Assembly: GCA_016871515.1 (NCBI GenBank)
Contig: VHDE01000013.1
Location: 518-64,517, forward strand
From: Verrucomicrobiota bacterium
GTDB lineage: Bacteria > Verrucomicrobiota > Verrucomicrobiia > Limisphaerales > SIBE01
Direction: 5' to 3'
Length of the DNA stretch: 64,000 nt
The translations under genes were made by a program, and so were the position numbers. Of this stretch, positions 3,136-63,315 are shown one piece after another (positions within the stretch are counted from its first letter, which is position 1; every line of letters starts with the position of its first letter). The notes beneath the pieces were generated by a model, which saw only the letters and a program-made list of their open reading frames with translations, did no database searches and was not told where the DNA came from.

Positions 3136-6100
3136 ATGAATAACGACAAATCGAAATCAGATCCCAAACCAGGCGAAGCAAAGACAAAGCCACCGCTGCC
3201 AGGGCCGGCGCCCATCGCGCCGAAAACCGCAACTCCAACGGCCTCGGGCCCTCGTTTCGCGCTCTTCCGTAGAATCGACTGGGTCACATTCGGGCTCACG
3301 ACGCTCCTGACCTTCATCGGTTATTACCTGACGCTGGCGCCGGACCTGACGCTGGAGGATTCCGGGGAATTGGCAGTGGGCTCGTTTTATGCCGGAGTCC
3401 CGCATCCACCCGGTTATCCGGTGTGGACACTTTATACGTGGCTCTTCACGTTGATTCCCTATTCGAATATCGCGTGGCGGGTTGCTCTCTCTTCGGCGGT
3501 GGCGGCGGCATTTGCGTGCGGTTTGCTGGCGCTGATGGTTTCGCGCGGCAGCAGTCTTTTGCTCGAGGGAATTGCCGAATTCAAACTGATTGAGCGTCGC
3601 TGGGAGAATGTGCTCTGCCTGGTCTCCGGCTTTGTCGCTGGCATGTTGCTTGGATTTAACGGGTTCATGTGGAGCCAGGCAGTCATCGTCGAAGTTTACA
3701 CGTTGAGCGTGCTCTCGTTCATGGCCGTGCTCTGCTGTCTGTTCCGCTGGATTTATGCGCCTGAGCAACGCCGCTATCTGTACTGGGCTTTCTTCTGGTT
3801 CGGCATCTGTTTCACGAATCATCAAACATTGATCGTCGCGGCGATGGGAATCGAAATCTTGATTATGGCCGTCCAGCCAAAGCTGGGCCGCGACCTATTT
3901 GTTGGAAATAGCATTGTTTATCTGCTCGGGATCGTGGCGAAGGCCGCGGGAGTTCTCACGGCGTTTGATAGCAACCCGCCGTTGTTTGTCATTTACAACT
4001 TGGTCGGCGTCGGGTCGATAACGCTCGTTATTTGGCTGAGCATTCGCCTTCGTGTGACCTTTGCCGTCTGGGAGGCTTTATTCCGCGACCTGCTTTTTGC
4101 GCTGGGTGTTGTCTATCTTCTAGCGCTGGTCCTAAACCAGATGGAAGTGATCGCCTTGAGCAGGAGGTCAGGGTTCATCGCACACCTCATTGGCCTCGGT
4201 GCTCTCGCTTTGTGCGGGCGCATCACTTACCAGGTTTCAAAAGCTAACCTCAAGTCACTTTCTGCCGCGGCCAAGGTTCTGTTGTTCTTTGCTGGCGGGT
4301 ACGTTCTGATCTTGATGTTAGCGTCGTTTCGGTCGGCGGTATTTCTCCGCCAGAATCTTCCTCTGTTCTATACGTTCCATGCGGTGGGCGCGGGCCTGCT
4401 CGTCTCCTCCCTGGCGTTCTTCATCAGGCGGACCGAGCTAGGTTCTGAACTGAAATTCATCAGCGGGCTCGCGGCGGTGTGGATTTTAGGCGCGTCGTTT
4501 TATTTTTACATGCCGCTGGCGTCGATGACCAATCCGCCTTTGAATTGGGGTTATCCCAGAACGGTGGAAGGCTTCAAGCACGCGCTTACGCGCGGTCAGT
4601 ACGAGCAAACAAATCCGACCAGCTCGATTGGCCGGTTCGTGGAACAAATCTGGATGTATGGCGAGGGAGCGTACGACGAATTCACGCCTGTCTATCTGCT
4701 GATTGGGTTGGTCCCTTTCTTGTTCTACCAGCGAATGCAGAAACGTGAGCGCGCCTGGTTGATCGGGTTGACGGCGATTGGCCTTTTCTTATCGGTGTTG
4801 CTTTTGATCCTGCTCAATCCGAATACCGACATGCAAAGCCGGCAACAGGCGCGCGTGTTTTTCACAGCCTCCCACATCATTGTGGCCATTGCGATCGGTT
4901 ACGGCGTCACGCTCATTGGCGGAGTGTTAGCGGCGGAATACCAGCGCTACCGGTTCGTCATCTTATGCAGCGGGGCGGTCGCGGCGGCGATTGAACTGTA
5001 TCATCTCGTCAGCACTTTCGACAAAACGCAGTTTCCGCTGATGCGCTTTTCCGCCGTGCTGGGACTCGCTTCGGCGGCCGTGTTCATCCTGGCGCTGCTC
5101 GTGGCTCGGCATCGGCCGATTTTGCCAGTCCTGATCGCCGTCTTCGCGCTCACGCCCGCGCGTTCGATCCTTTCGCATTGGGCGCCGAATGAACAACGCG
5201 GACACTTGTTTGGTTATTGGTTTGGCCATGACATGTTCACGCCGCCCTTCGGGATTTATCCCGAGATGGCGCGCAACGCCATTCTGTATGGCGGCACGGA
5301 TCCGGGACGGTTCAATCCGACCTACATGATTTTTTGCGAGAGCTTTATTCCAGCCAAACACAAGCCGCATGATCCGAACTTCGACCGGCGCGATGTCTAT
5401 CTGATCACGCAAAACGCGCTCGCCGACAAAACCTACCTCGATTACATCCGCGCCCATTACAACCGAAGCGCCCAGGTTGACCCGTATTTTTTCTCTGACT
5501 TAGTTCGGACCGAAAAGGAACGAGTCGAAGGGCGGACGAATCTCCTGGCTCGCGCCTTGTTGCCTCTGGATCGATATTTCACGGACCTTGGCGACCGCAT
5601 TGAGAGGCGCCGGCGTGCTGAGGGAGTTTACCCTCCAAAAGAAATCCTCACTCCGACAAACGAGGATTCGCAGCAGGCGTTTCACGAATATATCAACGAC
5701 GCGGCCCGCCGTCTGGCGCATGACCGGCAGTTTCCAAACGAACCCAAACAAGTGAAGCCAGGTGAGGGCGTTAGCTTCACGGAGGACAACCGCGTTCAAG
5801 TCAGCGGTCAAGTCGCGGTCATGTCTATCAATGGCCTCCTGACGAAAGTGATTTTTGACAAAAACCCGGAGAGCGAATTCTACGTCGAAGAAAGTTTTCC
5901 GTTGGACTGGATGTTCCCGCATCTGACGCCTTTTGGGATCATCATGAAAATTAACCGGCAGCCTGTTCCGGCGCTCACCGAGGGGATGATGTCGAAGGAC
6001 CACGAATTCTGGAGCAAATACTCCGAGCGTTTGATTGGCAATTGGGTAACGTACGACACGTCCGTGAAAGAAATCTGTGACTTTGCCGAGAAAACCTATC

Positions 6101-9610: not shown

Positions 9611-9746
9611 CGTAGCGCAGACTTTCAGTCTGCTGTATCGCAGAATTGTATTCTGCGGATCGTCCGCAAGTTCGAGCGTCCTGGAATGTGCGGACGGTAT
9701 GCCGATTGCAAATCGGCGATACAGCAGACTGAAAGTCTGCGCTACG
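9611..9746. repeat. 136-bp REPIN (inverted REP pair), 'gcagaCtttcaGtctgc' variant
   Basis: It has perfect 30-bp terminal inverted repeats, cgtagcgcagactttcagtctgctgtatcg and cgatacagcagactgaaagtctgcgctacg. Each arm carries a 7-bp-stem hairpin preceded by GTAG. Internal hairpins are cgcagaattgtattctgcg and ccgattgcaaatcgg. Confidence 0.85.
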
Positions 9747-22384: not shown

Positions 22385-22547
22385 GTAGCGGCGGGCATCC
22401 TGCCTGCCTGCCGTAAAGCCGTGGCATCCTGCCCGGCGGATGACGCGTGCGATTTCAAAGCGCAACGGCCGGGTTGCACGCGCTGTTCCGGGCGGCAAGA
22501 TGCGCGCCCTCTACGGCAGGCCGGAGGCCCGCCGCTGCCGCCGCTAC
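22385..22547. repeat. REPIN-like inverted repeat ('gtagcggcgggc...cctgccgta' family)
   Basis: The left arm gtagcggcgggcatcctgcctgcctgccgtaa matches the reverse complement of the right arm ctacggcaggccggaggcccgccgctgccgccgctac. It lies in the divergent intergenic region between the GH57 gene and the TPR gene. Confidence 0.45.
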
Positions 22548-22577
22548 TAAAGGGTTGAAACAAGCTCGAATTCTCTT

Positions 22578-38235: not shown

Positions 38236-38371
38236 CGCAGCGCAGACTTTCAGTCTGCTGCATGGCAGAATGGCGATCGGGATGCCGCCCGCACTTTCCA
38301 GGACGCTCGAACTGCCGGGCGATTCGCAGAATGCAATTCTGCCATGCAGCAGACTGAAAGTCTGCGCTGCG
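38236..38371. repeat. 136-bp REPIN, 'gcagaCtttcaGtctgc' variant
   Basis: It has perfect 30-bp terminal inverted repeats, cgcagcgcagactttcagtctgctgcatgg and ccatgcagcagactgaaagtctgcgctgcg. It lies between the peroxidase stop and the next gene start. Confidence 0.85.
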
Positions 38372-38423: not shown

Positions 38424-40313
38424 TCATTCATAGTCTTCGTTCAAGGAACGCAGAAACGCCGAAAGCGGCGCAAGCGTTTCTTTGACCAAATGGATTCGAG
38501 CCATTTCGGGATCGCCGTTGCGAACTCTTTGCTCGCGGGCGAGGTCAGAAGTAAAACGATAAAAGAATATGACGGCTTCAATGGTCGATGATTGGCCGGT
38601 GTGCAGGTAGGGCGCCGAATGGCCAAGATCACGCAGTCCGGGCGTTTTGAAGAGAGCGACGGTTTTAGGCAGCAGATCACCGCTGGCATTCGACCCAAAC
38701 TGCGCGGAGAGCATCGCGTTAAGTGGCGCTTGCGACGCCGGAAAATCCGGGTTCGCGTACACATTCCACAACCCGAGATCAGCGAAACCCGGGGACTCTT
38801 TGATCGGCTGGAAAGCAAATCGACCGTTTGCGTTCGGATGCATTGCGGTCGGCGGGAGGAAATCGTTCGGCGCAGCCAAACGTTCCGAGAGACTTGGGAT
38901 GGGAATCTGCGCCAACGTTCCTTCACCGTGAACCGAGTCGTACTCCCACTGCGTTGCGCCGGTGTTGTGAAAACTGAAATCGGTAAAATGCGGCGCGGCG
39001 TGGCAGGCGACGCAATTGCCAATCTTGCCCGGGACAGACGATGGGTCGCCGGGCTCAGCGAGGAATATTTTGAAGCCCTGCAATTCGGTTGGTCCGAAGC
39101 CGAATTTTTGGGCGTGGGTTGTGAATAAACCGTCGTCTGCGGTAACAAATACAGGGGATTTCAAGTTTGCGACAAGCCTCAACAAACGGCGACTGTAGGC
39201 CTTGTCATCCTCGCCGGCTTGCGGGCGACGCGGAAGGGAGTTCTTCTTGAGGAAGAGGTCGTAAGGGCTGCCCACGTATTCTCCGGCGTCGTCGGTGGCA
39301 AAAGCGAGCGACTTGAGATAAGCGTCGACGAGCTTGGCAACGGATTCGAGAATCCCGGCGTTGCTGGCTTTGAAGACATCAATCCTGAACTGTTCAGGCA
39401 ATCTGAAGGCGCCGGGAATTGCTGGATCGGTTCCGGCAAAGACTGTTCGGTAGGCTCCGCCCGTTTTTCGACCGAGGGGGTCCTGACCATTATCTTCGCG
39501 GATGACTCGGGCGATATGACTCACCGCCTGAGCGTGTTCGGCCGGCAACCAACCAAAGTTGCGACCGGTCAATGTTCCCTTAACGAGGGCTTCTCCGTTT
39601 GGGAATTCGCCATCGAAGTGCAGGAAGAACGCTCCTGGGCGGGCGACGGACGCGTTGGCGAGAGCGGGCGAATTGCGCGCCGTGAAACGACGGCCATCGC
39701 CGCGATCTGGAATCGGCGAACGGATGGCGAAATCCGCGTTAGCACGGGTCCCGAGACCGCTCGAACTGTGTTCATTCACGAGGTGACAAGCGCGGCAATT
39801 CATCGATTGTCCGGCGAATGCGCCTGGTTCCGCCGTATTGACCGTGAGCGTCTTTTCCATGACTGGGTCACCGCCGTTCGCCAACGGAGCGTTCACATCG
39901 CCGCCATAGTGCGCGAAAAAGAACTGGGCGAAACGAGTTTCAGCAAAGAGGCGCTCCCCGATCGCCACCTCAGGAGGATCAGGTTTAGCGTTAGCTTCCG
40001 CAGCCGAAAAAGCCCGAAAGAAGAGTTGAGGAGAGGATAATGGAACAGCGAATGTCGTCCGGCCGTTCGTGTCGGCAATTTGGACGGGCCATGTGGTCCA
40101 GCGCTGGAAGTCTTCGGTGGACGAAATGCCATAAGCGACCCCACCGGTTCCGGACACTATCAGCTGAGCGGTGCGGTTCGAAGAAGCCAGAATGGAAAGC
40201 CCGGGCGCACCCGAAGCTGTCGAATGGCCGCCGAGCAACAGAGCACCGAGACCAATAGACCAGCTAAGCCCAACGAGATGGGGCATTATTGCTGACACCA
40301 AGCCGAAGCGCAC
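38424..40313 (-). CDS. di-heme cytochrome c peroxidase (CCP/MauG family), secreted
   Basis: 629 aa. Two CXXCH motifs (CRACHLVNEH, CVACHAAPHFTDFSFHNTG). It also has the conserved FKTPGLRDLGHSAPYLHTG block. Confidence 0.8.
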   Translation of the reverse strand: MRFGLVSAIMPHLVGLSWSIGLGALLLGGHSTASGAPGLSILASSNRTAQLIVSGTGGVAYGISSTEDFQRWTTWPVQIADTNGRTTFAVPLSSPQLFFRAFSAAEANAKPDPPEVAIGERLFAETRFAQFFFAHYGGDVNAPLANGGDPVMEKTLTVNTAEPGAFAGQSMNCRACHLVNEHSSSGLGTRANADFAIRSPIPDRGDGRRFTARNSPALANASVARPGAFFLHFDGEFPNGEALVKGTLTGRNFGWLPAEHAQAVSHIARVIREDNGQDPLGRKTGGAYRTVFAGTDPAIPGAFRLPEQFRIDVFKASNAGILESVAKLVDAYLKSLAFATDDAGEYVGSPYDLFLKKNSLPRRPQAGEDDKAYSRRLLRLVANLKSPVFVTADDGLFTTHAQKFGFGPTELQGFKIFLAEPGDPSSVPGKIGNCVACHAAPHFTDFSFHNTGATQWEYDSVHGEGTLAQIPIPSLSERLAAPNDFLPPTAMHPNANGRFAFQPIKESPGFADLGLWNVYANPDFPASQAPLNAMLSAQFGSNASGDLLPKTVALFKTPGLRDLGHSAPYLHTGQSSTIEAVIFFYRFTSDLAREQRVRNGDPEMARIHLVKETLAPLSAFLRSLNEDYE

Positions 40314-50869: not shown

Positions 50870-53800
50870 CTAACTTGCCTTGCGGAAGGCGCGGCTCGCG
50901 GCGCCGAATGCAGCCAGTACAACAAACACGCCGATGAGGATCGACAGGCGCAGCCGCCAGGAAGCGGTCCTTGCCGCGACCGCCTCCAGTTCAATCCTCA
51001 AGTCCGCCCATGGATCCACGAGCACGGCACGCTTGAAGGTGAGGAGCCGGCCTTGTTCGGGAATAGACGCGCGCATCGCAACGGGACTGCTGACGGCGGC
51101 ATCCTGCTGCTGAATGAGTCGTTCGGCCAAGCGCATGAAAGCGGCGTTTTCATCCGCGGTGTTGCGATCGATAATCTCCTTCGCGTCCTGTTGGGTGTAG
51201 GTAACTCCTTCGCGACTCCGCAGGTCACGCACCCTTGCGCCCAGTGCCGTGGTGTCACCAGCTACTGCCGCTTGGCGGACGTTCAGCCCGACCAAAGCCT
51301 GTTGCAGCTTCAGATTGTGCAATTGAACGCGAGCATCTTCATTGAACGCGTTGTCATGCTGGCTCAAGCCGTAGGCGGCCTGGAATGCGCGTCGCGCCTG
51401 CTGCGGGTCGCCGCGTTCGAGCAGCGTATTGCCCATAGCCAGGAGTTCCTCGGCTTCTTTCGTTTTGCCGCGTTGCAGAGCAGCCTCATTTTGAAGATAA
51501 GTCTGCAAATCAACCGCGGCGCTCCGAGGCGCCATTTGGTCCTGTTGCAACTGCAGGGTCCCCGCCCAATCTTTGACGCGCCATTTCTCACTGAGATAGA
51601 CCCGCCATGTGATGTCCTCCAGCGGCAAATCAAATTTCGGGGCGAGCAGGTCAAGATCGAGCGAGCGCCTGCGAGATGAACCAATCTTGCTGCTGTAAAA
51701 TATTTCCACTGGGATCGCTTTCCCGGAGCGCGCTTGCGGTTCGAGCGGAACCAAAATGCGGTCCCCTTCGCGCCACGGCCAAACGCCGCTTTGATTCACG
51801 AACGCAAACCAAAAACGCGCGTCTGCTGGTAACGTGAGATAAAGCAAACGTTTGTCGCCTGGCAACATCTCGAGACGCGCTTGCGTGAGCATAACACCAT
51901 CATCGGAAATGACGGAGGTCAGCGTGACATTGTTGACGCGAGCGGGCAAAAGCTTCGCGGCTTCGTGGCGGTCCAGTTTCAATGGCAATTGAAACGACGG
52001 TTCAACGAGACGAAACGCGAAATTGGCCGAGACTGCTGACAAGTCCTGCTGCAGCGCGCGGGGAATGCTTTGCCACTCGGTCGTTTGCAGCGAAGCCGGC
52101 AGCGCATCGATGCGGACTTGTTGACGGCCTCGGGCTTGCACTGTGACGAAGCCGCGTTGCAGGTTCACGTCCGCCGTTTGGACGCCACGCAGAACGGTCT
52201 CGGTCGCGGTGTCTGCGACGGCAGTCTGATAAGTGACTTGCAACAAGTATCGACCAATCACACGCCGATGCAGCTTGATTTCCCACGCTTGCAAATTATT
52301 CGTCACCCCGCCTGCAATTGGGAGGAAACCGGAAACTTGGTCGCCTTGAAAACGGACGCTTCCGGCATTGGTCGGCAAGAAAACGCGGAACGCTTTCAAG
52401 CCCGTGTTCTCGATCTGGTATTGCAAGTTTGCCCCAACGTTTACCAGGGCTTCACTGACAGTTGCATGTTGCAGGCTCGTCACCTGAATCCACGGATCGA
52501 CTTGTTCGATGTCCAGCGCCAGATTCCACGGAACCTGCAGAATGCGGAAGGCGAGCACGCCCTTCTGCTGGATGCCTGTCTTTTGCGGGTCCAGCTGTGT
52601 CACGCCATTGCGCGTGCCCGGTTGCAGCCGCATGCCTTGGTCCGGCACAATCAAGAGAGTTCCGCGCTGCTTGCTGGCTTCGCGCAAAACGAGCTGTGGA
52701 ACGGCCCAATTGTTCGTGGTCTTAACACCGGCTCCCGACAAACTGATGGCGAACTGTTGCGGCCCGGCCGTCTTGCCGCGCAAGTGCAGCGTGATAATCC
52801 GTCCAGCATCAGCGCGCAACTCGGTCCAATGGCTCAACGCTTGGCCACTGATCGACTCCACATCGAGCGCGCCGGGCAACACAAAACTCAGGCGGAAAAT
52901 GCCCGCGCGCGTAATATCGACCGACAGGTTCGACGCAAGAACTGTCCGGTCTTCGCCCAATGATACGGTGTCCTGTGTTTCGACGCGCACGTCCGGCTCG
53001 ACTGGAGAGGCTCGGACCGAAACCGTAGCTCCAGTCTCCGTGTATCGAAACGCGCGGCGGACGGTCAGCTCAGGAATCTGCGCCTGGAGCATTTGCGGTG
53101 CGCTAACGGGATAATCTTCGAGATTGATCGGGGAGAGATTGCCTGCGTTCACGGAATCGAGTTGAACTTCGCGGCCCGTCGCAATACCAAGCAAACCGAT
53201 CTGCCCCGCCGCCTGCTCGATAGAAAGAAGTCCAATCGATTGTTCAAAGGGCAATGGGCCGGTAGGAACTTGTGAGCGGATCAGCAGCGTGAAAGGACGC
53301 GACTGCGCCGGGTTCAAATTCACGCGGAGCCTGCGCGTGTCGGGATCGAAACGCCAGAGCGACGCGATCGATTTTGGTGGCAGTGGTTGGTTGGTGGCGG
53401 CATCGGTCCCGGGTGTAGGATCGATTGCGCTGACATCCGTGATCGTCGCGCCGGTTGGGACGTTAAAGACAAGCTCCGTAAGTTCTCCCTGGGCCGGGCG
53501 AATGACGGCGTGATGCGCACCTTCAATTACACCCGCAGTCGGGACGTAAAGTTGAGAGATTTCAGCATAGAAGACCGCTCTTTCCCGCTTCACATCACGG
53601 CTGCGCGGGCGCCAGTTGATCCAGGCGTCGTTCACGGGCGCGAGGACGAGGTTCGCCATGGTGTTGCTGTTGGAAGTCGTGCGTTCGATGGAAGCGGCCT
53701 GCGCTGAGAATACGTCCACATCAAGATTGGCGAGGGTCAACCGAAGCGGATTGATCAACCCATGTTGCGTGGGGAGAACGAAGCCGCTTTCGCTAAGCTT

Positions 53801-56800
53801 GGCCGTCACGTGGATTTGGTATCGCAATTCGACATCGAACGCGCCGGTTTCCAAAGCTAGCAACTGATGCGCACGCCTGCCGTTGGCCGGAGCCTGAATC
53901 AGTCTGAGTGCGTTCGTCGGATAAACAACGCTCGTCAATACGGCCGGCTCGAACAGGAGAGGAAGCGTCTGGTTTTTCTCGGCCGTCCAATGGATCTTGG
54001 CCGTGCCGAGCGCGAACCTTTCTTCGACGCGAATTTCCTGCGCGACCGATTCGGCCAGCGCCGGCGCTCTGGGAAATGGAGTAGGGGTGTAAAGGGCGGC
54101 GGGAACTGGATTGGCTTGCGGATTGGCCGTCTGCGCCTGAGCAACCAGCAGCGTGCCATCGTAACGCAGAGTTCCACTCTGCTGTATCGCAGACTTGTAG
54201 TCTGCAGCGAGTCCGAGAGCCGAGACATTCCCGCGAGATCGAGCGTTCTGCCGACTGAAAGTCGGCGATACAGCAGAGTGAAACTCTGCGTTACGAGGCG
54301 CGCTCGAATGCGCAATGACCGGCGGCGCGGATTCAGACCACAGTGACAGCAGGGTTCCAATGAGCAGCGATGCCACAGCCGGCGCCGGGCCGCTGTCCGG
54401 CGGAGTCAGCGCCGCGGACTTTGGTTTTCTTGGCAGTTGCCAAAGCCGGCGCAGAGCCGGAATCAAAGTGTGGAGCAGTAAGAAGAGGAGAATAATTACG
54501 ATGAAACTCGGCGCTCCGCCGGGTGCCCGCAGTCCCGCCCAGGCCACAAGCGTCCATCCGAACAGCCATCCGACCGCCGTGAACCACATGCGATTCGTGA
54601 TCCATCCATAAACCCAGACCACCAGCGCAAGCAATGCCGGCCATGCGTAGCCAAGGAAACTGAACACCGTGGCTTCAGCTTTGATGTTTGCTACTTCGAC
54701 GTTAAGCCCAGTGCCGGCTTGTTGTACTGGCGCTAGAAACGTTACCTCGCGCGAAACAGCGACGTTCTGCTGCGCGGCCAAGTCACCAAGGCTGATCAGT
54801 GCTGCGATCGCCATAGCCACGGCTATCAGACCCAGGACCGTCCCGAACAGATGGCGCGCGCTGTATCTGTAAACGCCTTCACGCACCGTCCATCGCCAAA
54901 CCACAAGCGCAATCCCAACTAATAACAGCGCAGCAATCAGCGAAACCAGAGCTTGCGCAGCGTCCAGACCGCTGAATGCTTTGTTCAACTGGGCGAAGCC
55001 AGAAATATCGGCGACACCATCCACAGGCGTCAGTGAACCCCGGCGATAGATCAAACGTTGTCCTGCGTCTGGCGCAAGTTTCCATTCTGCGAGCATCACG
55101 GGTGCGGCGACGATTGGTGTGGCGATGGCCACCCGTTTGGGGGTTGTTGACCGCGAAGCCAACTTAACGTCCACGGCCAGGACCGCGTTGGGATCCGCTC
55201 GCTGCGGCAAGGGAATCATGTTCGCTTGTCCATCCAGGACCGGCACGACCGGAGCGCCGTTCACTGTTGCGGACCACAATTGCGTTCCAGCCGGGAGCGT
55301 CACTCGGAAATGTGAATTGCCGCGATTCTTGACGAAATAATGCGCGTCCGTCAGGACTTGTCCTTCTTTCGAAATTCGTGTCAACAGCGACGCCCGGTCA
55401 ACGACTTGGCTGAGAGAATCGCCCTGGACCAGCGGGTTGAGCGCGAGCCGCAAATTGAATGGCCGCGATGTGTAACGATAAGCCGCGAGAACTGGCGCAT
55501 CGAAGAAGAGTCGATATTCCGGAGGCACTTCACCAGTTTCGAGCGGCAACAATCCTGGCGACACATCCACCGGATTGACCTGAAATTGATACGCGCTAAT
55601 CACCAGCGTGTGGCCTTGTTCCGATTGCGCGTCGAGCGGGCGCGCTCCGGTAAATGCGAGCGTTTCGCCTTGCGCTCGAAACGGCCGCTCATAGGTTGCG
55701 AGCAGCGTATAAGCGCCGGACACGGGCGAGTGCAATTGCACGACGTAGCCATTGGTCGCTCTTTGCCAATTGCGAATGTCTTTGCCGATAAACTCGACGT
55801 TGAAGTATTCGTTCGAGAGCTCGATCCTCAGCGTTGATATCGGCGCGCCTGAAACCAGATAGTGCATCACGCTGCTGCCGTAAGCGATGCCTTCGCCGAT
55901 GGAAAAAAGATGGAAAGCATCCGCTTGCACCGTCTGCGGCAAACGCTCCACGCGCAACGTTGCCTGCCAAGCCGGTTCGCTGAGTCGAAATGCCAACTGA
56001 ATGCCAGCGACCTTGCGCGGAAAGAACGCCGTTGCGATCTCGGTCAATGCTTGGGTCCTGTCGGGTGTGATGCGGAAACCCGCATCCGCCGAGACGCCCA
56101 AATGGCCACGCACCGATTTCGCTCGGGAAATCTCGATCCGTGGCAACACCCAATTAGTTTGGCCCAGCGCTTGATGGCGTTCGACGCGGAGCTGAACGAT
56201 TTGCCGGCCGGAAACAGGTTGGCCATACACCAGACGCAGTTCGGCGTCTGGATCGCCCTCCGGCTCGCGCAGAAAATAATCGCTCAGGCCGGACGCGTTC
56301 AGGCGCGCGATGGCATATCCTTTTGGGACGCGCATCAGCAACTCCCGCATGGGCGCTTCGCGGATGTCCAATTCAAACTCCGCGTCGATGGCGAGTTCGT
56401 TCTCGGCGTGATGATATGCGAGCACTTCGGAGACGCTGAGTTCAGGCAAGATTTGGTCCGCTTGAATTCGCAGGGAGAATTCGCCGCCAGAAAAGCGATA
56501 AGCAAACCGCTGGCTGCCGCCAGTCGCAAAGAGCGTTCTCGTGACGTCCGTTTCCGGAAATTGTTCGGGAGAAATCTGAGAAAGTCCGGCGGCTTGGACA
56601 ACTTCGAGGCGCACCGCACCTTCGTTGAGTATCCGAACATAACCAGCTAAACGGGTCGCGCCTTCAGGCCGTAGTTGCATGGCATCGACGGCTTGGGGAA
56701 GCGCCCCGATGGATGTCTGCATTTGAACTTGGAGCGCGAACTGATCTTTCTGGGGTTGATTAAACTGAATGACGAGGCGCCGGCCAGCAGAGTTCGCAAT

Positions 56801-58174
56801 AGGTTCAACATTCCATGCGAGCACATGAGCGCCTTGGACACGTGTGACTTCGCCGGCGCCGCGCAACAACAAGGCGACGCGGTTCAACTCGCCTTGCATG
56901 ACTTTGAAATCAAGCAACGCCATTTGCCGCATGAGCCCGGGACTGACGCCGATCTGAGAAAGCATTTCGGCCGCGTAGAACAGTTTGCCCTCGGCTTCGC
57001 GCCGAGCTTCTTTCCAGGAAAGTTTCACCGCGCCGTCCGCCGGAAGGTAACCCACGAATTGGCTGCCAGCGCGTTCGGGCCGAGCCGCCCCGGGAAACTC
57101 GAACTGAGTATCGGCGATCAATCCTTCGAGAGCGATCGGTTGCAATGCACTCGGTGCAACGCGGAAATCGACTGAGTTCCAACCATTGGTTTGGCTAACT
57201 GCGGCCTTGAACTTGAGCTGAATGGGAAATTCGCCCGACCGATCGAACGCAATGATGAAGCGGCCTTGCTCGAACCGGAGACGCCAATGTGGATGCGTTT
57301 TCAGATCGGTCAAAGCAATGTTCCCTTGCAACAGCGCTATCGAACCGCCGCGCGGATTTTTGATGCGCGCGTTGGCGGTCAAGACAAAGCTTACCGTTTG
57401 GTCGCTGAGTTGCCCGCTCAGCTTAAAGTCGCGCAACACAACTCGGCGCGCTTCGGGGTCCGCGATCGTAATGCGGAGCGGGATATGGTAGGGCGAGCCG
57501 TGGAAACGGAAGGCGAGCGGATCTGGACTATCCGGCTTGGCCTCGATGCGCAATGATGATGGCAAGAATTTGGGATCGATGGGCGCCAGGCCGGTGGGGC
57601 TGTCGGGCTGGACATCGAGGTCCGGCGTCACTTCAATCGTCACGTAACCGTTGAATAACGCTGGACTGGATGGAGTGAGGGTTAAGGCGGTTAATGGATT
57701 CGTCCATGTGCGGAGATCGCGTTCGGCCGAAATCGTGACCGAAAGTTGCGTGATTGGTTTGTCGCTTTTGCGAGGGCGAAGGATCAGCGTGCGCACGCCG
57801 TTGGTTTCTTGGCGGATGCTCCAATCTTGCAGCAACTCGCCGGTGACCTGGCGTATTTCACCTTCCCCGCTGATCGTGAGTGGGAGTTCTTTGGGCTCGC
57901 CTTGAAGAATGTCGAAGGTGGCTGCGATGGAATGGGCGATTTTTTCGCGCGAGACTTTGATCGAGTGCTGGAGAGCGGTGGCGTAAATAAGCTTGTCTTT
58001 CTCGCCGGACAAACCGCTGAGCACCGCTTCGATGATCAGCCGCGCCCTCCCGTCTTCGACGCCGCCGTTGATGGAAAGGTTTCTTAATTCTGCGGTCGCG
58101 CCCGAAACGTTGTTCGCGGTCAGGATCGATAACGCAAGGAGGATGGATATGGGGATGCGTACGGGAATGTTCAT
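50870..58174 (-). CDS. giant hypothetical membrane protein (2434 aa): two paralogous beta-rich halves, each ending in TM segment(s), joined across a REPIN
   Basis: Uninterrupted ORF with the N-terminal signal peptide MNIPVRIPISILLALSILTANNVSG. The first half ends in ~5-6 TM helices. The second half ends in a TPR-like segment plus one TM helix (LSILIGVFVVLAAFGAA). The halves share blocks such as VTLPAGTQLWSATVNGAPVVPVLDGQANMIPLP and LTLPADARFWFAFVNQSGVWPWREGDRILVPLEP. It may really be two genes. Confidence 0.6.
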   Translation of the reverse strand: MNIPVRIPISILLALSILTANNVSGATAELRNLSINGGVEDGRARLIIEAVLSGLSGEKDKLIYATALQHSIKVSREKIAHSIAATFDILQGEPKELPLTISGEGEIRQVTGELLQDWSIRQETNGVRTLILRPRKSDKPITQLSVTISAERDLRTWTNPLTALTLTPSSPALFNGYVTIEVTPDLDVQPDSPTGLAPIDPKFLPSSLRIEAKPDSPDPLAFRFHGSPYHIPLRITIADPEARRVVLRDFKLSGQLSDQTVSFVLTANARIKNPRGGSIALLQGNIALTDLKTHPHWRLRFEQGRFIIAFDRSGEFPIQLKFKAAVSQTNGWNSVDFRVAPSALQPIALEGLIADTQFEFPGAARPERAGSQFVGYLPADGAVKLSWKEARREAEGKLFYAAEMLSQIGVSPGLMRQMALLDFKVMQGELNRVALLLRGAGEVTRVQGAHVLAWNVEPIANSAGRRLVIQFNQPQKDQFALQVQMQTSIGALPQAVDAMQLRPEGATRLAGYVRILNEGAVRLEVVQAAGLSQISPEQFPETDVTRTLFATGGSQRFAYRFSGGEFSLRIQADQILPELSVSEVLAYHHAENELAIDAEFELDIREAPMRELLMRVPKGYAIARLNASGLSDYFLREPEGDPDAELRLVYGQPVSGRQIVQLRVERHQALGQTNWVLPRIEISRAKSVRGHLGVSADAGFRITPDRTQALTEIATAFFPRKVAGIQLAFRLSEPAWQATLRVERLPQTVQADAFHLFSIGEGIAYGSSVMHYLVSGAPISTLRIELSNEYFNVEFIGKDIRNWQRATNGYVVQLHSPVSGAYTLLATYERPFRAQGETLAFTGARPLDAQSEQGHTLVISAYQFQVNPVDVSPGLLPLETGEVPPEYRLFFDAPVLAAYRYTSRPFNLRLALNPLVQGDSLSQVVDRASLLTRISKEGQVLTDAHYFVKNRGNSHFRVTLPAGTQLWSATVNGAPVVPVLDGQANMIPLPQRADPNAVLAVDVKLASRSTTPKRVAIATPIVAAPVMLAEWKLAPDAGQRLIYRRGSLTPVDGVADISGFAQLNKAFSGLDAAQALVSLIAALLLVGIALVVWRWTVREGVYRYSARHLFGTVLGLIAVAMAIAALISLGDLAAQQNVAVSREVTFLAPVQQAGTGLNVEVANIKAEATVFSFLGYAWPALLALVVWVYGWITNRMWFTAVGWLFGWTLVAWAGLRAPGGAPSFIVIILLFLLLHTLIPALRRLWQLPRKPKSAALTPPDSGPAPAVASLLIGTLLSLWSESAPPVIAHSSAPRNAEFHSAVSPTFSRQNARSRGNVSALGLAADYKSAIQQSGTLRYDGTLLVAQAQTANPQANPVPAALYTPTPFPRAPALAESVAQEIRVEERFALGTAKIHWTAEKNQTLPLLFEPAVLTSVVYPTNALRLIQAPANGRRAHQLLALETGAFDVELRYQIHVTAKLSESGFVLPTQHGLINPLRLTLANLDVDVFSAQAASIERTTSNSNTMANLVLAPVNDAWINWRPRSRDVKRERAVFYAEISQLYVPTAGVIEGAHHAVIRPAQGELTELVFNVPTGATITDVSAIDPTPGTDAATNQPLPPKSIASLWRFDPDTRRLRVNLNPAQSRPFTLLIRSQVPTGPLPFEQSIGLLSIEQAAGQIGLLGIATGREVQLDSVNAGNLSPINLEDYPVSAPQMLQAQIPELTVRRAFRYTETGATVSVRASPVEPDVRVETQDTVSLGEDRTVLASNLSVDITRAGIFRLSFVLPGALDVESISGQALSHWTELRADAGRIITLHLRGKTAGPQQFAISLSGAGVKTTNNWAVPQLVLREASKQRGTLLIVPDQGMRLQPGTRNGVTQLDPQKTGIQQKGVLAFRILQVPWNLALDIEQVDPWIQVTSLQHATVSEALVNVGANLQYQIENTGLKAFRVFLPTNAGSVRFQGDQVSGFLPIAGGVTNNLQAWEIKLHRRVIGRYLLQVTYQTAVADTATETVLRGVQTADVNLQRGFVTVQARGRQQVRIDALPASLQTTEWQSIPRALQQDLSAVSANFAFRLVEPSFQLPLKLDRHEAAKLLPARVNNVTLTSVISDDGVMLTQARLEMLPGDKRLLYLTLPADARFWFAFVNQSGVWPWREGDRILVPLEPQARSGKAIPVEIFYSSKIGSSRRRSLDLDLLAPKFDLPLEDITWRVYLSEKWRVKDWAGTLQLQQDQMAPRSAAVDLQTYLQNEAALQRGKTKEAEELLAMGNTLLERGDPQQARRAFQAAYGLSQHDNAFNEDARVQLHNLKLQQALVGLNVRQAAVAGDTTALGARVRDLRSREGVTYTQQDAKEIIDRNTADENAAFMRLAERLIQQQDAAVSSPVAMRASIPEQGRLLTFKRAVLVDPWADLRIELEAVAARTASWRLRLSILIGVFVVLAAFGAASRAFRKAS
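54160..54295. repeat. 136-bp REPIN, 'gcagaGtttcaCtctgc' variant, inside the giant ORF
   Basis: Terminal arms are cgtaacgcagagttccactctgctgtatcg and cgatacagcagagtgaaactctgcgttacg, with internal hairpins gcagacttgtagtctgc and ccgactgaaagtcgg. It is translated in the ORF frame as RNAEFHSAVSPTFSRQNARSRGNVSALGLAADYKSAIQQSGTLRY. Confidence 0.85.
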
Positions 58175-58190
58175 GAGCAGTGTTCTGGAA

Positions 58191-58219
58191 ATCGCGATAA
58201 CCGAAAAAACAAGCGCTCC
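58191..58219 (-). promoter_or_regulatory. candidate ECF-type promoter (GGAGCG-N17-CGCGAT) upstream of the giant ORF
   Basis: The minus-strand sequence reads ggagcg cttgttttttcggttat cgcgat, ending 16 nt before the ATG at 58174. It resembles the GGAGCA-N16-CGTCTA box upstream of the ECF sigma gene at 63315. This is pattern match only. Confidence 0.2.
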
Positions 58220-58223
58220 GGAC

Positions 58224-58454
58224 CGTAACGCAGAGTTTCACTCTGCTGTATCGCCGACTTGCAGTCGGCAGAGCACTCGACCTTGCGGAAACTTCTCGAT
58301 TTGGCGGACGCGCTGCAGATTGGAAATCTGCGATACGGCAGAGTAAAACTCCGCGCTACGATCTGGCACTCGAATTTGTGGGAGCTTCTCGATTGTCGGA
58401 CACGCCGCAGAGTGAAACTCTGCGATACAGCAGAGTGAAACTCTGCGTTACGCC
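58224..58454. repeat. 231-bp REP cluster (one 137-bp REPIN plus a partial REPIN with tandem hairpins), left flank of RAYT
   Basis: By eye it is identical base-for-base to 59243-59473. It starts cgtaacgcagagtttcactctgctgtatcg and ends gcagagtgaaactctgcgatacagcagagtgaaactctgcgttacgcc. Confidence 0.9.
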
Positions 58455-58536
58455 GCTGGCCGCGACATTGAGGTTGCAAATAACCGAGTCGACGCGCTAG
58501 CCTCCGCACGTGTTTCCCAAGGAGGAAAATCCGCGG

Positions 58537-59247
58537 ATGGATCGAGTGCGCTTTGAGCTTCGTTCGGACGGGATCAAACCGGAGGAAACAAACCCGTTGC
58601 GTTCCGGTGTTCATACACGAGGCTATCTGCCACACGTCAAGCGCGAAGGCGCGCGTTACTTTGTGACATTTCGCCTCGCCGATTCGTTGCCCAAAGAGGT
58701 CTTGCTCAAGTATCAGGCGGAGCGCGGGGAGCGGTTGCAGCTTTTCTATGCGCAGCACGACGCCGCGAAAGGCCCGGGGACAGCCCTCCCGAAGCAAGAG
58801 ATGCTGGAAGAAATCGAGCGCGAGTACAATCGCAAGGTCGAGCGTTATCTTGATCAAGGCTGCGGGGAATGCTGGCTGAGACGACCCGAAATTGCGGACT
58901 TGGTCACTGAAGCCGTGCGATTCTTTGATGGCAAGCGATATTGGCTGGATGCTTGGGTTATCATGCCAAATCACGTGCATGGTGTCTTGTGGCCGGCGCC
59001 GAACCACTCGTTGAGCCATATCCTGCAAAGCTGGAAAAGCTACACAGCTCGGCAGGCGAACAAAGTTCTCAATCGGACGGGACATCCATTTTGGCAACGA
59101 GAGGCATTCGATCATTGGATTCGCGATGATGAGGAACATGCGCAGTGCTGTCGTTATGTGACAAACAATCCGGTAAAGGCTGGCCTGTGTGCAACGCCGC
59201 GGGACTGGAAATGGAGCAGCGCGTGGGGTGATGGCCAGCCATCGTAA
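58537..59247 (+). CDS. REP-associated tyrosine transposase (RAYT; IS200-like Y1/HUH family)
   Basis: ORF 58510..59247 with ATG at 58537, preceded by aaggagg (58519-58525). HUH motif in WVIMPNHVHGVLWP. Downstream blocks: SWKSYTARQAN, FWQREAFDHWIRD, YVTNNPVKAGL, W.WSS. N-terminal block GYLPHV. The TAA stop lies inside the right REP cluster. Confidence 0.8.
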   Translation: MDRVRFELRSDGIKPEETNPLRSGVHTRGYLPHVKREGARYFVTFRLADSLPKEVLLKYQAERGERLQLFYAQHDAAKGPGTALPKQEMLEEIEREYNRKVERYLDQGCGECWLRRPEIADLVTEAVRFFDGKRYWLDAWVIMPNHVHGVLWPAPNHSLSHILQSWKSYTARQANKVLNRTGHPFWQREAFDHWIRDDEEHAQCCRYVTNNPVKAGLCATPRDWKWSSAWGDGQPS

Positions 59248-59473
59248 CGCAGAGTTTCACTCTGCTGTATCGCCGACTTGCAGTCGGCAGAGCACTCGAC
59301 CTTGCGGAAACTTCTCGATTTGGCGGACGCGCTGCAGATTGGAAATCTGCGATACGGCAGAGTAAAACTCCGCGCTACGATCTGGCACTCGAATTTGTGG
59401 GAGCTTCTCGATTGTCGGACACGCCGCAGAGTGAAACTCTGCGATACAGCAGAGTGAAACTCTGCGTTACGCC
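59243..59473. repeat. 231-bp REP cluster, right flank of RAYT
   Basis: Identical to 58224-58454, at an offset of 1019 bp. Confidence 0.9.
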
Positions 59474-59525
59474 TTTGGGCAGTTTCTATGCGTGGGATGA
59501 ATTGGTTCGGCCTGTTCATCTCGAT

Positions 59526-62500
59526 CTATCTTCCCGCCATGCTCTTCGCTTGCCGGATCATCCATTCGAGCTTTTTAGGACGTGCATCGGCGCCATAGAC
59601 TTCGGGCACACCATTCAGTTGCGCGAGCAAACGGTCGGTCGTCACTTCGCCGGCGTATGGACTTGAAATGAGCCATTCCGAGAACGCACTTGCGGTCGCG
59701 GCTAGGCGCATAGCCGGCCCAGCTTGTTCCAACGCCACAGCATTTCCGCTGTAAGGCACCGGCCATTCATGCTCGCGATATTCGGTTGTATTCGGTTTCT
59801 TGTATCGCACTCGCACGACGGCCAACGGCCCGTCCCCCTGCGGATTCACCTCAACGACGTAAAGCGCGTTGCCCGATTCCGCCGCACCAATCTCGGCCGC
59901 ATCGACGGTGTTATCGCGGAATTGTTCTTTGGTCAGCTGATGTTTGGCATACCCGATTTGGCGGCAGGCCGTCACCCGTTTCGGATTGAATTCAACCTGA
60001 GCTTTAACATCCGACGCTGCCACTCGCAGAGAGCCGGCGAGTTGAGCGACAAAACCAGTTGCGGCCTCAGCCGGTGTGTTAATAAAACCGTAACGCCCAT
60101 CACCATTGCGCGACAGCACCTCCAACAAATCGTCGTTGAAACCTTCCCACCCAATTCCGAAGCAATCGAGCGCGATCCCTTGTTTGCGATGATTTTCAAC
60201 TTTCCGCTTCAGAGTGTCCGGATTAACGTCACCGAGATTCGCCGCGCCGTCGGTGAGCACCACGACGCGGTTGCCGCCGCTCACGTAATGCCGCAACGCC
60301 GTCGCGTAGGCGAGATTCAGCGCATCTTCGAGATTGGTGCCGCCTTGTGGTGCGAGTTGGCTCACCCGTTCCGCGACCTGGGCCGCTTGGTTGCCTGGCG
60401 CACCATCCACCCAGAGCCGGGCTGTGCGCGCAAACGCAATGACACTGAGTTTGTCTTCGGGCTTCAATTGCGTTGCCAACACGCGCAATGCCTCCCGAAG
60501 AATCTGCACGCGATCCGCCCGCTCCATCGAGCCGGAGTTGTCGAGCAGCAACACGAGATTCAACGGCTGGCCGGGTTGACGGCCTTGCGCCGCCGTCTTG
60601 ATCGAGAAACGCAGCAAATCACGATTATGCGCGAACGGATAGCGAGCGCGTTCCCAAGCAAAGGCTACGGGGACATCTGGCGGCGGCTCGGAATCGCCGT
60701 AATCGAACGCATTGATGAATTCTTCGCTGCGCACGGTCGCAGGCTCGGGCATGACTCCCTTTTCCAGACTGGCCAAGGCAAGCTTGAACGACACATCGCT
60801 GACGTGCAGCGAGAAGGTCGAGAATGCGTTTTCGCGCGTCTGGACTTCGGGCTGCGGAACTGGCGCGCCAGCCACGGGTTTGCGCACGGCTGTATCGGCC
60901 TCTTCTCGGTTGGACTCTCCACGCAGGCGATCAAGTTCCGTGTGCGCTTGAGCATCCTTTTTCTCCTGCTCGGCAAGCTGTTCTTTCAAGACACGAGCGC
61001 TATCGTCGGCCGCCTGTTTGCTCCGTTCCGCGCGTAAATCGCGATAAACCTCGGCGATGGTGTTGGCGATCTGGGCAGCCTCTTCTGGTTGATCGCTCTT
61101 CACTCGAATATCGAGTTCGCTCGAATTGGGAACCTGCCGCACATCAACGCGGCCTAATAGCGCTTGAAATGCTTCGGCATTATTCAGCTTCTCGCCCTTG
61201 CCATGCTTCTCGGCCCAAGCTTCATTCAGATTCAATTTCTCAATCACCTTGTAGAGAACTTGCTTGGACTTGACCTTCTCGAATTCAGTCGTGACGAAGT
61301 AGGGATCGAATCCAACTTGAGGCTGAGCGCGCGTCACGAGCGGCGCCATATCAGTCGCATCTTTCCCGACGCTGATGCGCGCGCTTCGTTCGACTTTCCC
61401 GCTCAACGCTCCGCCGATGCGTCCCCACAAGCTTGAATCTCGTGGTGACTCAGCTTGCGCAACATCGACAATCTGGACAGGACCATTGTTAGGCGCGAGC
61501 GGCGGTCGACTTGCTCCTGTAGCTGACCGGGTCGCATGACCTGCGCGCAATTCACCCCATTCACGTTTGGCTTTGGACTGCGGTGTCTCCTGCGCGACTT
61601 GAAGCTCTTCGATCCGTTGTGTCGACTCGGCTGGTCTCGCTCCAGACTTGCTTTCAGTGCCTGGCTTGGCTGCTTTGGCGAGGGTGCGTGCTCCAATATC
61701 CGCTGCCCACGCCTGGTTCCGCGGCTGACCAACCTCTGCCTCTGCCTCTATTGGTGGAAGAACAATGGACGACCGATTCGACTCCCGCAGCGCCTCCTCT
61801 GTCACTTTGGAATCTTTTCCGAGGCTGCTCATGCCCGGGCGCATCAACCCATAACGTTCCACATCCATATCGCGAATCGTCTTGATTCGAACCTCGCCAT
61901 CTGGCGGCGCTGCTGTAGTGGAAAAGTCGGATTTTAAACTGGAGACAACGCCGGCGTTTTTGCTGGGAATTATGCCTAAGCTATCGCCGAGGGCTGCGAG
62001 AGGTTTCCCGATCGATTCGCGCTGCGACTGAACATTGTCGATCACAGCCGCGCCGAAGTCCTTCTTGTTCACACCAAATTCCAAAGCTCCGTTCTCTGCG
62101 GCAGCCACTGCCACGAAGGATGTTTCCTTTGAGCGCTCGAGCCGCCTGGCGAATCCCGGCAGCAACGCGACCGTGCCCAGTAGCGCGACCAATGCGGCGG
62201 CAAGGCTCATCGGGACAAACCAACGGCTCTCTCGATGGACTGAGGCGGCGAATTCCTTCGGGGCAACCGTCTTAAAATGCTGCAGCAGCTTCTCGCGCCG
62301 TTCAGCGGACAATCGCAGGGGCGTCTGTTGCGCAGCCGCTTGTTCCACCGGGTTGGCTGCAACTTCAGCGACCAGCCCAATCGTTTGCTTGAGGCGTTCA
62401 TGAAGTTGCGCCAGTTCGGCATCTTGCGCGATCTCCTCGCGCAAAGCAGCAGCTTCTTCCGGCGATAGCTCCCCGTGCAGCAGAGCAGTTAAGCGCGCTT

Positions 62501-62576
62501 CCATTTGTTCGCGCGGTGTTTCAGAAAAACCGTCGTTCATAAAGAGCCCCTTCGGATTTCGATGTGTGAGAGGCAT
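59526..62576 (-). CDS. anti-sigma factor fused to GumC/Wzz-like and YfbK-type vWA (vWA + DUF3520-like) periplasmic domains
   Basis: 1016 aa, with an alternative start at ATG 62540 (MNDGFSE...). The N-terminus EARLTALLHGELSPEEAAALREEIAQDAELAQLHERL is typical of an anti-sigma domain. TM helix WFVPMSLAAALVALLGTVALL. Chain-length-determinant-like block KSKQVLYKVIEKLNL...VDVRQVPNSSELDIRVKSDQPEEAAQIANTIAEVYRD followed by a coiled coil. Then STFSLHVSDVSF..., the MIDAS motif LVLLLDNSGSM, VVVLTDGAAN and a C-terminal YfbK-like tail. Confidence 0.75.
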   Translation of the reverse strand: MPLTHRNPKGLFMNDGFSETPREQMEARLTALLHGELSPEEAAALREEIAQDAELAQLHERLKQTIGLVAEVAANPVEQAAAQQTPLRLSAERREKLLQHFKTVAPKEFAASVHRESRWFVPMSLAAALVALLGTVALLPGFARRLERSKETSFVAVAAAENGALEFGVNKKDFGAAVIDNVQSQRESIGKPLAALGDSLGIIPSKNAGVVSSLKSDFSTTAAPPDGEVRIKTIRDMDVERYGLMRPGMSSLGKDSKVTEEALRESNRSSIVLPPIEAEAEVGQPRNQAWAADIGARTLAKAAKPGTESKSGARPAESTQRIEELQVAQETPQSKAKREWGELRAGHATRSATGASRPPLAPNNGPVQIVDVAQAESPRDSSLWGRIGGALSGKVERSARISVGKDATDMAPLVTRAQPQVGFDPYFVTTEFEKVKSKQVLYKVIEKLNLNEAWAEKHGKGEKLNNAEAFQALLGRVDVRQVPNSSELDIRVKSDQPEEAAQIANTIAEVYRDLRAERSKQAADDSARVLKEQLAEQEKKDAQAHTELDRLRGESNREEADTAVRKPVAGAPVPQPEVQTRENAFSTFSLHVSDVSFKLALASLEKGVMPEPATVRSEEFINAFDYGDSEPPPDVPVAFAWERARYPFAHNRDLLRFSIKTAAQGRQPGQPLNLVLLLDNSGSMERADRVQILREALRVLATQLKPEDKLSVIAFARTARLWVDGAPGNQAAQVAERVSQLAPQGGTNLEDALNLAYATALRHYVSGGNRVVVLTDGAANLGDVNPDTLKRKVENHRKQGIALDCFGIGWEGFNDDLLEVLSRNGDGRYGFINTPAEAATGFVAQLAGSLRVAASDVKAQVEFNPKRVTACRQIGYAKHQLTKEQFRDNTVDAAEIGAAESGNALYVVEVNPQGDGPLAVVRVRYKKPNTTEYREHEWPVPYSGNAVALEQAGPAMRLAATASAFSEWLISSPYAGEVTTDRLLAQLNGVPEVYGADARPKKLEWMIRQAKSMAGR

Positions 62577-62581
62577 GGCGC

Positions 62582-62717
62582 CGTAACGCAGAGTTTCACT
62601 CTGCCGTATCGCAGAGTTTCACTCCGCGGCGCGCCCGCAATTCCAAAGCCCACCGACAGATCGAACGCTCTGCCGACTGCAAATCGGCGATGCGGCAGAG
62701 TGAAACTCCGCGTTACG
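62582..62717. repeat. 136-bp REPIN, 'gcagaGtttcaCtctgc' variant, between the ECF sigma and anti-sigma genes
   Basis: Terminal arms are cgtaacgcagagtttcactctgccgtatcg and cgatgcggcagagtgaaactccgcgttacg, with 2 arm mismatches. It fills almost all of the 151-bp sigma/anti-sigma spacer. Confidence 0.85.
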
Positions 62718-62727
62718 GGGTTTTCCG

Positions 62728-63315
62728 TCATGGGATAACTCCGGTTTTGGCCAATTCGTCAGCGATGCTTTTCAGCGCATGATGCAGAAGGTAACCGACG
62801 TGACCCACGGTGAGACCGGTCCGGGCGCTGATTTCTTTATAGGACAAACCTTCGTTGAACTTCAGCCGGATCAACTCGCGGCTGCGTTCGTCGAGTGTCT
62901 CCAAACTGAGCCGCACCAGACCGATGCCTTCCCAGCGCGCGATTTGTTCGTCCGGCAGCGGCTGAGGATCGGTGATTTCTGGTTCGGCAGATGCGGGACG
63001 GTCTTCCGACGATGAAGCTGAAGTCTGCGCGAGCGGGATAATCTTGCCGGACTGTCGCCGTTGGTTTAGCGCGAGATTGTGCACCGTGCGATAGAGCCAT
63101 CGCCTTGGCTCGCGCACTTGATCAAACTGTGCATGCAATTTCATGAAAGCGTCTTGAACAACATCTTCAGCGAGACTCAATTCCTGAACAAAGCGCAGGG
63201 CATAACAGAGGAGCGGCGATTCCAGAGCGGCAAAAAGCTCCTCAATCGTTTCCGGTCGTGGTGATGCCACACTAACGTCTTCTCTTCGGCCCACGGCCAT
63301 GCCTGGGTGAGTCAT
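62728..63315 (-). CDS. RNA polymerase ECF-type sigma-70 factor
   Basis: 195 aa. Region 2 is EDVVQDAFMKLHAQ...WLYRTVHNLALNQRR. The region 4 HTH is RSRELIRLKFNEGLSYKEISARTGLTVGHVGYLLHHALKSI. Confidence 0.85.
   Translation of the reverse strand: MTHPGMAVGRREDVSVASPRPETIEELFAALESPLLCYALRFVQELSLAEDVVQDAFMKLHAQFDQVREPRRWLYRTVHNLALNQRRQSGKIIPLAQTSASSSEDRPASAEPEITDPQPLPDEQIARWEGIGLVRLSLETLDERSRELIRLKFNEGLSYKEISARTGLTVGHVGYLLHHALKSIADELAKTGVIP

Follow-up and report, generated by a model that had tools for sequence, protein, structure and literature searches.

A RAYT gene between two identical REP blocks at a conserved locus of uncultured Verrucomicrobiota

The RAYT gene and its flanking blocks

The stretch of DNA analyzed in this work (the window, 64,000 nucleotides) covers positions 518 to 64,517 of the forward strand of contig VHDE01000013.1, part of the metagenome-assembled genome (MAG) of a Verrucomicrobiota bacterium. 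It contains a gene for a REP-associated tyrosine transposase (RAYT), which lies between two clusters of repetitive extragenic palindromes (REPs). Our gene map agrees with the original prediction, made from the sequence alone, that this is the sole plus-strand gene in a block of minus-strand genes, which runs from 46703 to at least 63315. The neighbor on the left is a giant open reading frame (ORF) of 2434 amino acids (50870..58174, minus strand) without a Pfam domain, and the neighbor on the right is a vWA/YfbK_C gene (59526..62576, minus strand) preceded by the gene for an extracytoplasmic function (ECF) sigma factor (62728..63315, minus strand). A tblastn search found no second copy of the RAYT in the window. 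The NCBI entry that is 100% identical to the protein is named 'MAG: transposase [Verrucomicrobia bacterium],' which fits the earlier guess of a host from the Planctomycetes-Verrucomicrobia-Chlamydiae (PVC) superphylum.

The RAYT coding sequence most likely extends from 58510 to 59247 on the plus strand and encodes 245 amino acids from a GTG start, because all orthologues in our multiple alignment begin with MFP at this position. The ATG at 58537, which had been taken as the start and would give a 236-residue product, is 9 codons short of the GTG, and the public annotation of the identical protein (P0001, 224 amino acids) begins 21 codons inside it. Residue numbers given here refer to the 245-residue form. 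The four peptide blocks quoted earlier from this gene are all present in the ORF ending at 59247. The TAA stop codon (59245..59247) is contributed by the GTAA head of the repeat that follows and thus falls within the right-hand block, as had been noted.

Profile and structure searches support the view that the protein is a domesticated transposase of the RAYT family, that is, a putative HUH/Y1 single-stranded DNA nuclease-transposase related to the TnpA of IS200. The window protein scored 101 bits against the curated equivalog model NF047646 (REP_Tyr_transpos; cutoff, 80), the only protein for which we read the score against this cutoff, and 36 of 36 aligned orthologues matched the same model by E-value (E ≤ 0.001). 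The protein passed the Pfam Y1_Tnp model (30 versus 23) and stayed below the cutoff of the IS200/IS605 model NF033573 (transpos_IS200; 25.7 versus 55 bits). The sole significant match by sequence to a solved structure was 4ER8, E. coli TnpA-REP on a REP hairpin (E = 1.6e-5). An AlphaFold2 model built from the 36 orthologues is of moderate quality, with a mean confidence (pLDDT) of 71 and values below 50 for residues 1 to 38; its top Foldseek match was again 4er8_A (E = 2.4e-4; TM score, 0.42 on the target), followed by the TnpA proteins of ISDra2, IS608, and IS200. The earlier identification as a RAYT is thus borne out by sequence and by predicted fold. The family itself is large (5917 matches at E ≤ 1e-5), many of its members bear the IMG name 'REP element-mobilizing transposase RayT,' and it is already called RayT or REP-associated tyrosine transposase by the IMG and NCBI pipelines.

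Pairwise alignment to 4ER8 placed H155 and H157 of the H155-V-H157 motif (58972-58980, plus strand), Y216 (59155-59157, plus strand), and N220, four residues past Y216, opposite H59/H61, Y115, and N119 of E. coli TnpA-REP, which are the HUH motif, the catalytic tyrosine, and a metal ligand, respectively (Messing et al., PMC3479197). All 36 orthologues have H155, H157, and N220, and at least 90% of them have Y216.

The left block (58224..58454) and the right block (59243..59473) are exact direct copies of each other. The mismatch-free identity, previously judged by eye, held in the computed alignment (231/231 bases). Each block contains one complete element of 137 nucleotides, in the left block CGTAAC...GCTACG at 58224-58360; the remainder (58361-58454) is made up of a spacer and one additional right arm, in agreement with the earlier description of a complete and a partial element. 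Identity sets in at the C of CGTAAC, does not extend to the left, and ends two bases past GTTACG; the first mismatch is at offset 231, and a separate comparison returns 236 nucleotides at 99%. There are six hairpins per block, which in the left copy lie at 58230-58246, 58253-58269, 58315-58331, 58338-58354, 58407-58423, and 58430-58446. Complementarity between the outer arms (58224-58269 and 58407-58452) is 89%, and as single-stranded DNA the 231-nucleotide block is predicted to fold at -65.1 kcal/mol (z = -9.1).

Anatomy and distribution of the repeats

The hairpin GCAGAGTnnnACTCTGC occurs 22 times in the window when up to two mismatches are allowed, against an expectation of 0.13, and none of 100 shuffled sequences reached 22. 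A REP unit consists of a four-base head, a C, and a 7-bp stem with a 3-nucleotide loop. Over all loci the head is GTAG in 90 cases, GTAA in 30, GTAT in 21, and GTAC in 9; GTAA may be tolerated as a variant here because the head supplies the stop codon of the RAYT. Any of the four bases can occupy position 6 of the stem, with a compensating base opposite it in 156 of 157 hairpins overall, including 79 of 79 hits in a genome collection that was searched with a pattern leaving both bases of this pair free. REPs are arranged as elements of 134 to 135 nucleotides, in which head, hairpin, head, and hairpin are followed by a spacer and the mirror image of the first half. The arms are 80 to 85% identical among copies, and the spacer, of fixed length, is about 45% identical. 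Conserved inverted REP arms around a variable spacer are the published definition of a REPIN (bioRxiv 10.1101/2021.07.10.451892). With GTAG-type heads, covarying stems, inverted doublets, and dispersed copies, the reading of the flanks as REPs and REPINs is supported.

Four further REPINs lie in the window, the number of other sites given in the original prediction; one of them turned out to be inside a gene rather than extragenic. The copy at 9612..9745, with GTAG heads and the stem GCAGACT/AGTCTGC, is located between two minus-strand ORFs. The copy at 38237..38370 lies 54 nucleotides past the stop codon of an ORF at 38424..40313 (minus strand); it has degenerate GCAG/CTGC heads and a decayed inner left hairpin and may be an ageing copy. 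The copy at 62583..62716 has GTAA heads and fills the 151-nucleotide gap from the ECF sigma factor gene to the vWA/YfbK_C gene. The copy at 54161..54294, also with GTAA heads, is in frame within the 2434-residue ORF. Hence, five of the six REPIN sites in the window are intergenic and one is intragenic. The dispersed copies are 60 to 78% identical to one another and to the flanks. We considered assigning the GCAGACT-stem copies (9612 and 38237) to a separate REP family with another RAYT and dropped this idea, as single REPINs in two other genomes (L074 and L072; the L and P labels are our own for loci and proteins) mix stem variants and as stem position 6 varies freely with compensation.

An Rfam scan of 57800-59900 gave no known RNA family. 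Scans for intrinsic terminators and for sigma-70 promoters gave nothing over background, but such scans are uninformative for this phylum; no terminator-like T-run follows the hairpins.

Scanning a collection of species-representative genomes with a 22-nucleotide pattern of head and hairpin, for which we estimate about 0.5 chance matches, recovered the exact 22-mer in at least 71 loci, most of them from Verrucomicrobiota MAGs. In a megablast comparison of the window with the 71 loci, the matches consisted of REPs only. One MAG, labeled Limnocylindrales (DATJGF01), accounts for at least 36 of the loci, and single hairpins occur in MAGs labeled Ignavibacteriales (contig GC content, 0.355), Calditrichota, KSB1, Bacteroidetes, Terriglobia, Acidobacteriota, and Binatia; the loci with nonverrucomicrobial labels are L012, L027, L044, L054, L058, L059, L067, L068, L070, and those of DATJGF01. 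Some of these labels may reflect binning errors. Contamination with verrucomicrobial sequence like that of the window is excluded for the low-GC contigs. The wide spread of the 22-mer may be due to horizontal transfer of the RAYT clade, to ancient conservation, or to misbinning.

Conservation of the locus and movement of REPINs

The window and four other contigs (L072/L076, L073, L074/L075, and the P0064 contig, the last read as a gene map only) share the order giant gene (minus strand), RAYT (plus strand), and vWA gene (minus strand); the RAYTs of the four contigs are 67 to 73% identical to that of the window. Across the syntenic loci the giant gene encodes 2200 to 2430 amino acids on the minus strand and has no Pfam domain, and the vWA/YfbK_C gene (minus strand) is preceded by the ECF sigma factor gene. 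The vWA/YfbK_C protein has an anti-sigma-like N terminus in the window, L075, and L076. The REPIN between the sigma factor and vWA genes is found in the window and in L072/L076; the 67-residue gene called over it in L076 is probably spurious. Because the RAYT has the same neighbors in four other genomes, it has been vertically inherited at a fixed locus and does not belong to a mobile unit of 1.25 kb. The conserved locus is confined to a clade at about 67 to 75% identity, since L008 (64% identity) does not share the synteny with the giant and vWA genes.

The association with REPs reaches further than the synteny. REPs adjoin the RAYT homologue in all eight loci inspected (the window, L072, L073, L074, L008, L065, L077, and L078), among which L008 (64% identity), L065 (53%, probably KSB1), L077 (KSB1), and L078 (named Planctomycetes) are distant. 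They are found on both sides in seven loci and in L078 downstream only, where a remnant is left upstream. All three syntenic loci with readable DNA (L072, L073, and L074) have one REPIN on each side of the RAYT. The stop codon of the RAYT is the TAA (window) or TAG (L072, L073, L074, L065, and L078) of a REP head in six of the eight loci. The hairpin body differs in the distant loci (GCAGGCTTCCAGCCTGC), while the head and the foot of the stem (GTAG-CGCAG...CTGCG) are kept; the head and the bottom of the stem are the parts read by the E. coli enzyme in 4ER8 (PMC3479197). The closest homologues are mostly on contigs of only 0.9 to 2.5 kb, which is consistent with metagenome assemblies breaking at the flanking REPINs.

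Upstream and downstream flanks are 100% identical in the window, 93% in L074, 84% in L072, and 78% in L073, while REPIN identity between genomes is 59 to 78%. In L072, the REPIN lying upstream of the vWA gene (L072_8586) is 80 to 84% identical to other REPINs of L072 (84% to L072_3833) and 69% identical to its positional counterpart at 62583 in the window. Because REPINs are closer to other copies from the same genome than to those at orthologous positions, within-genome copies are being homogenized. The window flanks are, on this comparison, the extreme end of a process also seen in relatives, and their identity points to very recent copying of the composite 231-nucleotide element from one side onto the other. 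The recent duplication or conversion that had been proposed for the flanks is thus retained, and the alternative proposal, mobility of the whole 1.25-kb unit, is not, given the synteny in four other genomes.

The giant gene provides evidence of REPIN movement. The REPIN at 54161-54294 encodes residues 1294 to 1338 (RNAEFHSAVS...SGTLRY) just past a hydrophobic segment of the protein, and alignment with the orthologues in L075 and L076 (65 to 70% identical over the whole length) revealed that both carry, at the corresponding position, an in-frame segment derived from a REPIN (about 5857-5975 in L075 and about 4454-4569 in L076). L076 has a second in-frame REPIN (about 5480-5598; GTAAC...GCTAC, 117 nucleotides), a 40-codon insert at a site that is clean and uninterrupted in L075 and in the window (about 55229). 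This is a single case of a filled site (L076) set against empty sites (window and L075), the kind of comparison with related genomes that had been proposed earlier, and it indicates that a REPIN has moved since these lineages split. The trinucleotide ATG is present on both sides of the insert and could be a 3-bp target duplication or due to chance.

What, then, does the RAYT do at this locus? We consider it very probable that the locus is a REPtron, i.e., a single, chromosomally fixed, vertically inherited RAYT amid REPINs of the family that it serves. This reading builds on the repeat anatomy, the family assignment, the catalytic residues, the stem covariation, the synteny, and the one insertion polymorphism. 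By analogy with E. coli TnpA-REP, we infer DNA binding, the cleavage chemistry, and a role of the RAYT as the mobilizer of these REPINs. The protein would bind single-stranded DNA in which the REP folds into the 7-bp hairpin, its predicted target being a GTAA or GTAG head followed by the hairpin GCAGAGTTTCACTCTGC, of which it would read the 5' head and the stem foot (CGCAG...CTGCG). It would then use Tyr216 to cut and rejoin DNA beside the element, while His155, His157, and Asn220 hold a metal ion, and thereby copy or move REPINs but not itself. The 231-nucleotide flank is a REPIN with an extra arm, one flank having lately been copied onto the other, presumably by gene conversion or by RAYT-mediated replacement, both of which predict that the copied tract ends at element boundaries, where it does end.

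Several observations weigh against this interpretation. Several REPINs occupy the same position in different genomes, as would also be expected of elements that have long been immobile, and the divergence of the dispersed copies in the window does not suggest a recent burst. The C-terminal tail with which the E. coli enzyme contacts GTAG is missing from the protein, and H123 is replaced by an alanine, so that details of recognition may differ. Moreover, the structural model is only of moderate quality and its first 38 residues are of very low confidence.

The first two of these points could mean that the RAYT is a domesticated nuclease that moves nothing now and that the REPINs are fixed structural elements kept by host selection, either as RNA hairpins that terminate or stabilize transcripts or as DNA-structure sites, with a merely historical link to the gene. 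We regard this as unlikely. It accommodates the presence of REPINs at the same positions (RAYT flanks, upstream of the vWA gene, and giant gene) despite proteins that are only 65 to 73% identical, the divergence of the dispersed copies, and the location of the copies at 9612, 38237, and 62583 between codirectional genes, where REPs act on mRNA in other bacteria (PMC3733652). However, it does not account for the insertion that L076 alone has at a site left clean and empty in two other genomes, nor for the greater similarity of REPINs to own-genome copies than to positional counterparts, a pattern that requires ongoing conversion or replacement, and it sits poorly with the strict conservation of the catalytic residues and with hairpins that are not followed by a terminator-like T-run.

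A narrower objection concerns the recency of the copying. Perfect identity of the two blocks could have arisen by collapse or copying of similar repeats during metagenome assembly, in which case the feature would be real and its apparent youth an artifact. The source is a MAG contig, most homologues are on short contigs that suggest that assemblers struggle with the flanks, and orthologous loci show flank identities of only 78 to 93%. Three independently assembled orthologous loci nevertheless keep both flanks distinct, and on both sides the identity breaks off abruptly where the element ends, which is what copying in the cell should produce; hence, we give such an artifact a low probability.

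Finally, it is most improbable that the block-gene-block unit of 1.25 kb is a recently arrived mobile element (an IS200/IS605-like insertion sequence [IS] or a mobile REPtron), as its identical flanks, the lone plus-strand orientation of the gene, and the Y1_Tnp domain shared with IS200 might suggest, for the RAYT has the same two neighbors in four other genomes and its own diverged REPIN flanks wherever the DNA is readable, scores below the IS200 equivalog cutoff, has no second copy in the window, and is bounded by direct copies of a dispersed repeat rather than by distinct left and right IS ends, the absence of which had been noted from the start.

Relation to known REP and palindrome systems

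The probable REPtron at the window locus resembles the REP/BIME (bacterial interspersed mosaic element) system of E. coli K-12 in that the gene has REP clusters on both sides. Its protein shares with TnpA-REP (RayT/YafM, 4ER8) the HUH motif, the catalytic tyrosine on helix D, and the asparagine four residues on. The E. coli REP likewise consists of a 5' GTAG head and a hairpin, and the parts read in 4ER8 are those kept across phyla here. There are, however, clear differences. The two proteins (245 versus 165 residues) can be aligned over only about 97 residues. The window protein begins with a conserved arm of about 38 residues (1-38), which is predicted to be disordered, and contains a helical hairpin of about 55 residues (62-116) that, according to the model, is inserted after strand 1. 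E. coli TnpA-REP contacts GTAG with a C-terminal tail that includes E161 (PMC3479197), a tail that the window protein lacks, and Ala224 takes the place of the metal ligand H123. The REP stems are perfect 7-bp palindromes with 3-nucleotide loops here and bulged, imperfect hairpins in E. coli, and each REPIN arm contains two tandem REPs, unlike in E. coli.

The REPIN-RAYT systems of Pseudomonas and Enterobacteria (Bertels and Rainey; groups 2 and 3) have inverted REPs with a variable spacer and a self-flanked RAYT, as does the window locus, which is hosted by Verrucomicrobiota and has relatives in KSB1 and Planctomycetota. RAYTs have been described as single copy, vertically inherited, and located amid their own REPINs in the same extragenic space (Bertels et al., PMC5581495), and an association with REPINs is stated to be limited to groups 2 and 3 (PMC5581495; bioRxiv 10.1101/2021.07.10.451892). 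The locus extends this biology, studied almost wholly in Gammaproteobacteria, to uncultured Verrucomicrobia, where the same hallmarks are found: a fixed locus, vertical descent, self-flanking REPINs, and a covarying hairpin. It does not overturn the current understanding.

The original prediction had presented the locus as a canonical REP/RAYT arrangement in a PVC-type genome. The arrangement stands, but its novelty is smaller than was implied. Di Nocera et al. (2013, PMC3733652) had already reported GTAG-tagged REPs from the PVC superphylum. In Opitutus terrae, a member of the same phylum with GTAG REP families 17 to 20, REP heads give TAG stop codons to adjacent ORFs, and many REPs and REP dimers are in frame inside genes (PMC3733652), features in which it resembles the genomes studied here. 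The intragenic REPs of O. terrae encode peptides such as VGPALAAG, whereas those studied here encode ...SAVS.../...DTADYKSAL. We rejected the idea that both belong to one family, as the peptides in the supplement of Di Nocera et al. do not match ours, and a full-text literature search found no paper with our REP sequence.

What is modestly novel is the divergent protein architecture, the cross-phylum signature of head and stem foot, and the conserved in-frame REPINs in the giant gene. We put forward, tentatively and as somewhat less probable than not, that these features define a REPIN-RAYT lineage outside groups 2 and 3, common to Verrucomicrobiota, Planctomycetota, and KSB1. In this lineage the N-terminal arm and the helical-hairpin insertion would replace the C-terminal GTAG-binding tail, recognition would follow the head-plus-foot signature (GTAG-CGCAG...CTGCG), and REPINs would both end the RAYT reading frame and serve as in-frame linker peptides in a giant envelope protein. 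The conserved GTAG head and stem foot offer a specific and testable code by which a RAYT of divergent structure would recognize its repeats.

With the TnpA proteins of IS200/IS605 the window protein has in common the Y1/HUH fold and, by analogy, the recognition of a subterminal DNA hairpin; it differs from them in falling below the family cutoff, in its fixed position without another copy in the window, and in the lack of left and right IS ends. A different parallel is offered by the Rickettsia palindromic elements, the classic case of in-frame palindromic insertion (cited in PMC3733652), in which a palindromic repeat is retained within a gene, as at 54161-54294 and in the L076 insert. Here, the inserted elements are GTAG-headed REPINs linked to a RAYT, and they provide a natural example of repeat-derived protein segments.

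The window also contains a REPIN-like element at 22386-22548 that has a GTAG...CTAC frame and different hairpins (GCGGGCATCCTGCCTGC and GCAGGCCGGAGGCCCGC). These hairpins resemble the KSB1-type REP GCAGGCATCCTGCCTGC of L077, and, judged by sequence, the element may belong to a second REP family in this genome.

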